853 nucleotides of DNA, from assembly GCF_003334335.1 (NCBI RefSeq), contig NZ_QOWQ01000143.1; one strand, given 5' to 3'. Each line of letters starts with the position of its first letter. Position 1 is the first letter of the stretch. The position numbers and the translations under genes were made by a program. Shown here piece after piece: positions 1 through 853 of the stretch. The notes below the pieces were generated by a model. The model was given only the letters and a program-made list of their open reading frames with translations. It was not told where the DNA came from and made no database searches. This DNA is from Escherichia coli. GTDB lineage: Bacteria > Pseudomonadota > Gammaproteobacteria > Enterobacterales > Enterobacteriaceae.

Positions 1-494
1 GTCACCCACATGCTGTACTGCACCTGGGCCATGTAAGCCGACTTTATGGCCTCGAAACCACCGAGCCGGAACTTCATGAAATCCCTGGAGGTAAACGGGC
101 ATTTCAGCTCAAGGCCATTGCCGTCACTGCATAAACCATCGGGAGAGCAGGCTGTGCGCATACTTTCGTCGCGATAGATGATCGGGGATTCAGTAACATT
201 CACGCCGGAAGTGAATTCAAACAGGGTTCTGGCGTCGTTCTCGTACTGTTTTCCCCAGGCCAGCGCCTTAGCATTAACTTCCGGAGCCACACCGGTGCAA
301 ACCTCAGCCAGCAGGGTGTGGAAGTAGGACATTTTCATGTCAGGCCACTTCTTTCCTGAGCGGGGCTTTGCTATCACGTTGTGAACTTCTGAAGCGGTGA
401 TGACGCCGAGCCGTAATTTGTGCCATGCATCATCCCCCTGTTCGACAGCTCTCACGTCGATCCCGGTACGCTGCAGGATAATGTCCGGTGTCAT
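1..494 (-). CDS. exo: Lambda exonuclease (Exo / Red-alpha), 5'->3' dsDNA exonuclease; N-terminal 164 codons, 3' end truncated by window edge (full protein is about 226 aa)
   Basis: Minus-strand translation from the ATG at 494-492 reads [164 protein letters not shown](T), with no stop through position 3. This matches the lambda Exo N-terminus as I recall it, including Arg28 and the PD-(D/E)XK catalytic residues Asp119, Glu129 and Lys131. It was absent from the ORF track only because there is no in-window stop codon. Confidence 0.96.
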
Positions 495-853
495 GCTGCC
501 ACCTTCTGCTCAGTGGCTTTCTGTTTCAGGAATCCAAGAGCTTTCACTGCTTCGGCCTGTGTCAGTTCTGACGATGCGCGAATGTCGCGGCGAAATATCT
601 GGGAACAGAGCGGCAATAAGTCGTCATCCCATGTTTTATCCAGGGCGATCAGCAGAGTGTTAATCTCCTGCATGGTTTCATCGTTAACCGGAGTGATGTC
701 GCGTTCTGGCTGACGTTCTGCAGTGTATGCAGTATTTTCGACAATGCGCTCGGCTTCATCCTTGTCATAGATACCAGCAAATCCGAAGGCCAGACGGGCA
801 CACTGAATCATGGCTTTATGCCGTAACATCCGTTTGGGATGCGACTGCCACGG
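491..853 (-). CDS. bet: Bet (Red-beta) single-strand annealing / recombination protein; C-terminal 120 codons plus TGA stop, 5' end lies beyond the window (full protein is about 261 aa)
   Basis: The minus-strand frame is open from 853 down to the TGA at 493-491 and reads [120 protein letters not shown]. This matches the C-terminal region of lambda Bet. The supplied ORF (491..829) starts at an internal Met (Met codon 829-827); the frame continues without a stop to the window edge, so the true start is upstream and outside the window. Confidence 0.96.
499..505 (-). promoter_or_regulatory. Probable Shine-Dalgarno sequence for exo (AAGGTGG on the minus strand), embedded in the last codons of bet
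   Basis: The minus-strand sequence reads ...GAGCAGAAGGTGGCAGCATGA. AAGGTGG lies 4 nt upstream of the exo ATG (494-492), with the AGG core 7 nt upstream. This is consistent with a ribosome-binding site placed inside the upstream gene for coupled translation. Confidence 0.55.

Follow-up and report, generated by a model that had tools for sequence, protein, structure and literature searches.

The CTD of Bet (Red-beta), which works with Exo in the Red recombination module of phage lambda, is built of three helices, and its helices 2 and 3 form a groove for helix E of Exo (PMC6393309). Leu223, Ile227, Phe249 and Leu250 make up the pocket on the Bet side. Gln252 and Glu256 are located at the Exo interface, yet their alanine versions keep 55-106% activity; Lys253 is required for binding of the SSB C-tail and for recombination, and deletion of residues 251-261 abolishes function (PMC6393309). 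The eight Red-beta residues that were tested had been picked for their interface location, and the text of that work does not name residue 255 as one of them (PMC6393309). A literature search on PDB entries 8TFU and 8TG7 and on the structure of the Red-beta CTD with SSB returned no relevant paper. In lambda, bet (32025-32810) and exo (31348-32028) overlap by an ATGA, the stop of the one gene serving in the start of the other.

The window (that is, the entire 853-base stretch of E. coli DNA analysed here) is read as the place where exo meets bet in the Red recombination module of a lambdoid phage or prophage of natural origin, with a probability that we put at about 0.95. Its features are collected in Table 1. 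The ATGA arrangement is the same as that of lambda, as is the purine-rich stretch AGAAGGTGG, which is identical in lambda and the window; phage 434 and P27 carry an annotated ribosome-binding site for exo, at 501-504 and 502-507, respectively. All remaining open reading frames of the window, the longest of which has 97 aa on the plus strand, overlap exo or bet and are taken as incidental. An Rfam scan of both strands (E<=1) matched no RNA family.

Table 1. Features of the exo–bet window (positions counted from the first base of the 853-base stretch)
Feature	Position	Strand	Remarks
exo (lambda exonuclease), codons 1-164 + 2 bases	1..494	minus	ATG at 494-492; 164/164 aa as in lambda Exo chains
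bet (Red-beta annealase), codons 142-261 + stop	491..853	minus	stop TGA at 493-491; match to lambda Bet CTD chains
ATGA overlap of bet stop and exo start	491..494	minus	read from the sequence
Purine-rich, Shine-Dalgarno-like AGAAGGTGG for exo	499..507	minus	inside bet codons 257-259; read from the sequence
GTCGAT replacing lambda ClaI site ATCGAT (lambda 31990-31995)	456..461		silent at exo Asp13; from alignment
Bet codon 255, ACT (Thr); GCA (Ala) in lambda	512..514	minus	only amino-acid difference of the window

The closest relative is Escherichia phage PhiR5_1 (PV340545.1), whose bases 5549-6401 are identical to the window throughout (853/853). It is followed by an E. coli prophage of SCU-104 with two mismatches, 4A7 with seven, SfI with eight and phage 434 with nine; phage 434, SfI, 4A7 and many E. 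coli prophages are 98.9-99.8% identical to the window. The SCU-104 prophage, 4A7, SfI and 434 all carry both Thr255 and GTCGAT and depart from the window at a few further silent bases, and over this stretch the Exo and Bet residues encoded by phage 434 do not differ from those of the window. The layout of PhiR5_1 is lambda-type, head and tail genes included: int, xis, ea22, orf61, orf60a, exo, bet, gam and kil are followed by the immunity region with cI, cro and cII, by O, P and ren, by the nin genes and Q, by the lysis genes, and by Nu1 through J (Nu1-A-W-B ... J). Outside the window PhiR5_1 differs from lambda in the immunity region (HipA/HipD by cI) and on the integrase side. Its segment 7915-9488, between kil and cI, is annotated as HipD antitoxin and HipA toxin and corresponds to the region of N and rexAB in lambda, and in the gap at 7491-7914 neither an N nor a cIII gene is annotated. 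A literature search for PhiR5_1 found no relevant paper, and its origin is known from the GenBank record alone. The window could derive from a prophage or from another phage sharing the module, 853 bases being insufficient to fix the source.

Against reference lambda (NC_001416.1, 31535-32387) the window aligns ungapped and is identical at 833 of 853 bases (97.66%). The 20 substitutions (2.34%; zero indels) are divided between exo, which has 14, every one of them synonymous, and bet, which has six in five codons, counted as five synonymous changes and one nonsynonymous change (A255T). Transitions make up 14 of the total and transversions six. Eighteen are single synonymous changes, 17 of them at third positions and one at a first position (CGG->AGG, Arg137); the other two both fall in Bet codon 255, changing GCA to ACT and Ala to Thr. 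The Nei-Gojobori method counts 19.0 synonymous and 1.0 nonsynonymous differences (dS 0.106, dN 0.0015, dN/dS 0.014), and so low a dN/dS argues for two functional genes under strong purifying selection, unlike the product of sequencing error or recoding. In the plasmid collection a single lambda Red plasmid was found, pCAGO, which equals lambda across the window and so has the same 20 mismatches. The original prediction took such differences, if real, to point to a lambdoid variant close to lambda and neither to canonical lambda nor to a standard recombineering plasmid; the check it asked for was just such an alignment and classification of mismatches, and full identity to lambda would have counted against it. 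This reading holds up well: the window stands at 97.66% to lambda and pCAGO and at 100% to PhiR5_1, and by nucleotide identity to NC_001416 (20/853 mismatches, 19 synonymous and one nonsynonymous) it does not belong to canonical lambda.

Lambda records themselves are not entirely uniform in this segment. Whereas pCAGO has no difference from NC_001416 within the window, a second lambda record (PV340536.1, 'Escherichia phage Lambda') is one base off, at the equivalent of window position 432, giving Exo D21E. The DE3 and lambda imm434 records have one extra mismatch in the 64-base stretch used as the GTCGAT query (below), which is possibly the same difference between laboratory-stock and reference lambda.

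The encoded Exo fragment is identical over 164/164 residues to the solved chains 6M9K_A, 1AVQ_A and 3SLP_A (E about 1e-111), and the gene is annotated as an exonuclease in PhiR5_1 and in all related records. Its translation contains, as in lambda, the catalytic residues D119, E129 and K131, and all four residues of the surface that contacts the partner (Thr90, Leu91, Phe94 and Thr95) are present. By its identity to solved structures the predicted protein is assigned to lambda Exo (Red-alpha; PD-(D/E)XK / YqaJ-type 5'-3' exonuclease). The full-length PhiR5_1 Exo (5362-6042) scores 54.6 bits against TIGR03033, under the cut-off of 68.05; the match covers residues 18-176, and within it 18-164 are the same as in lambda Exo. 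This shortfall is most likely due to the model rather than to the protein, and would carry no weight against membership in the Exo family. TIGR03033 appears, in other words, to under-score its namesake. In three phages of the comparison panel (L011, L013 and L005), positions 90 and 93 of Exo (window 227-225 and 218-216) are of note.

On the Bet side, residues 182-261 are all identical to chains 8TFU_A and 6M9K_D save for A255T. Scored against the bet_lambda equivalog model TIGR01913 (cut-off 76.95), the full-length Bet of PhiR5_1 reaches 169.5 bits; the fragment contained in the window gives 37.7 bits on its own, its match being confined to the last 37 positions of the profile. Identity to the structures together with the TIGR01913 score places the predicted product among the Bet / Red-beta single-strand annealing proteins. 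From the near-identity of both proteins, the Exo and Bet of the window should work as they do in lambda: Exo would resect 5' strands, and Bet, loaded through its CTD, would anneal single strands.

How common the variant bases are was judged in two ways. Nine other lambdoid phages, including 434, SfI, 4A7 and 933W, form the comparison panel, and allele counts were taken with short queries that hold only the site of interest, a match of >=99% being an exact match. (The resulting fractions are approximate: megablast needs a 28-base exact word and misses copies without one, and the best place per record was counted.) In the panel, 18 of the 20 window bases are found in one to eight of the nine phages; the other two, 86T and 707T, were seen, among the sequences examined, in PhiR5_1 and the SCU-104 prophage only. 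The window base is the commoner one at 13/20 sites, and at 15/20 sites no more than three of the nine phages have the base of lambda. The 54-base stretch with the Thr255 codon ACT is matched exactly by 48 of 99 matching phage records and by 2,245 of 3,108 matching E. coli records (complete records), and the 64-base stretch with GTCGAT by 79 of 182 and 2,716 of 3,277, respectively. The 54-base lambda version with Ala255 (GCA), for its part, is exact in 219 of the 2,987 E. coli records that match the lambda query; several laboratory strains (J53, an MG1655 derivative, BLR(DE3)) are among the top-listed records that have it. At codon 255 the GCA of lambda is common to phage 21 only among the nine panel phages, and at position 456 the A that forms the ClaI site is shared with lambda by BP-4795 alone. 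These panel and E. coli counts make lambda the minority type, or outlier, at Bet 255 and at ClaI 31990, and the alleles of the window the common ones.

Exchange of gene segments among lambdoid phages is well known, and the differences between the window and its relatives are distributed as such exchange would leave them, clustered and flanking long identical runs. Bases 154-649, a run of 496, are identical to phage 434, which has nine differences in all (P about 0.003 under uniform placement), and bases 164-706, a run of 543, are identical to SfI (P about 0.002-0.003 under uniform placement); these P values assume that sites are placed uniformly and are uncorrected for ten comparisons. The identical runs fit recombinational mosaicism within the exo–bet module.

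The single amino-acid replacement deserves separate consideration. The original prediction stated that lambda Bet ends in KQKAAEQKVAA and that the window carries a Thr within this end; alignment bears this out, with Thr in place of Ala255. The codon had been misplaced, at 509-511, which reads CTC and specifies Glu256 (GAG); the Thr codon reads AGT on the plus strand at the position given in Table 1, and the span 456-511 to which attention had been drawn ends just before it. Within the CTD, residue 255 belongs to helix 3, where it falls between Q252/K253 and E256. Across a panel of 12 sequences it takes three states: Ala in lambda and phage 21, Ser in ev099 and P27, and Thr in the window, 434, 4A7, SfI, BP-4795, Lambda_2E9, 933W and SCU-104.

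It can be argued from this that A255T is functionally meaningful and selected, tuning the helix that binds Exo and the host SSB so that it differs from that of lambda. The change is the sole replacement in the window and involves two bases of its codon, three residues are represented at the site, and the site sits in helix 3 among residues of the Exo interface (Q252 and E256) and the residue needed for SSB binding and recombination (K253) (PMC6393309). On the other hand, Ala, Thr and Ser are all small and the exchanges among them conservative; position 255 goes unnamed in the text of the structural work, in which substitution of its neighbours Q252 and E256 by alanine is well tolerated (PMC6393309); the named Bet residues that bind Exo or SSB (L223, I227, F249, L250, Q252, K253 and E256) are all unchanged in the window; and Thr255 occurs alongside an N-terminal part of Exo that is identical to that of lambda, so that no compensating change is evident. 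We consider a selected, functional A255T very unlikely. A related version, in which Bet 255 is under diversifying or host-adaptive selection, tuning the binding of its partners or evading a recombinase-sensing defence, with Thr255 functionally distinct, is to be rated about as low. Most simply, Ala, Thr and Ser at Bet 255, with Thr the majority state in nature, would constitute a neutral or nearly neutral polymorphism.

The other difference singled out at the outset was the absence of a ClaI site near the start of exo. The ungapped alignment confirms that lambda has ATCGAT where the window has GTCGAT and that the change is synonymous, exo codon 13 going from GAT to GAC with Asp kept; the hexamer occupies nt 34-39 of exo, and the position first given (about nt 33-38) was thus off by one. 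ATCGAT has a single occurrence in the corresponding stretch of lambda and none in the window. (The two sites spotted in this way account for 3/20 of the differing bases.) In lambda the sequence ATCGATC (31989-31996, window 455-462) overlaps a Dam site, GATC (459-462), which the window retains. In DNA from dam+ hosts, methylation by Dam would keep ClaI from cutting at ATCGATC.

Silent loss of a restriction site is, by inference only, a typical cloning edit, and the window might on that account be suspected of being an engineered or recoded Red cassette from which the ClaI site was deliberately removed with silent changes. However, GTCGAT is carried by phage 434, SfI, 933W, phage 21 and others, the exact stretch around it is the one found in thousands of E. 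coli records (2,716, as counted above), and the entire window equals a natural phage that was induced or isolated on E. coli (PhiR5_1). Among plasmids (PLSDB) there is no vector-like context for the window, the best matches being large chromosome-like or prophage-bearing records at <=99.2%. Recoding is accordingly a very improbable account of these bases. Least credible of all is the proposal of canonical lambda, or of a Red plasmid derived from it, with sequencing or assembly errors: it would accommodate the collinearity of the window with lambda and the lack of indels, but 19/20 differences are synonymous, unlike random error, pCAGO matches lambda and not the window, and the differences are not sequencing noise because PhiR5_1 is an identical, independent record and all 20 variant bases recur in independent records.

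On the favoured reading, the natural exo–bet alleles of the window differ from those of lambda by ordinary standing variation under strong purifying selection, amounting to 19 silent changes and the conservative A255T; one of the silent changes removes the ClaI site that lambda has at 31990, and homologous recombination shares and reshuffles such alleles among lambdoid phages.

Another silent difference touches a sequence motif. On the minus strand at window 294-310 (lambda about 31828-31844), the sequence in both lambda and phage 21 is TTGCTGAGGTTTGC, a perfect match to the CII-binding consensus TTGCN6TTGC, and the record of phage 21 lists it as a CII site. A silent change in exo (Leu62, CTT->CTG) turns the version of the window into CTGGCTGAGGTTTGC, in which the first repeat is broken. 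The TTGCN6TTGC of lambda at this location is probably a chance motif; by our own arithmetic about six occurrences of TTGYN6TTGY are expected per lambda-sized genome.

Four further database records stand out. Three plasmid records of 48,499-48,502 bp, from Salmonella (NZ_CP082339.1), Stenotrophomonas (NZ_CP104294.1) and Paenibacillus (NZ_CP068597.1), have the exact score of lambda against the window (97.7%, 1465 bits), and MW057783.1 ('Campylobacter phage CJLB-4', 48,361 bp) matches the 54-base bet query in the pattern of lambda. All four look like lambda DNA, possibly control or spike-in material, filed under unrelated hosts.

The exo–bet variation seen here is that of ordinary alleles of a conserved, recombining phage module; nothing about it is new, and no new biology is implied. 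Its value is mostly one of provenance: the window derives from a lambdoid phage or prophage found in the wild, neither laboratory lambda nor a Red plasmid being its source, and Bet 255 and ClaI 31990 are usable as markers that tell lambda control DNA and recombineering constructs from natural prophage in assemblies.
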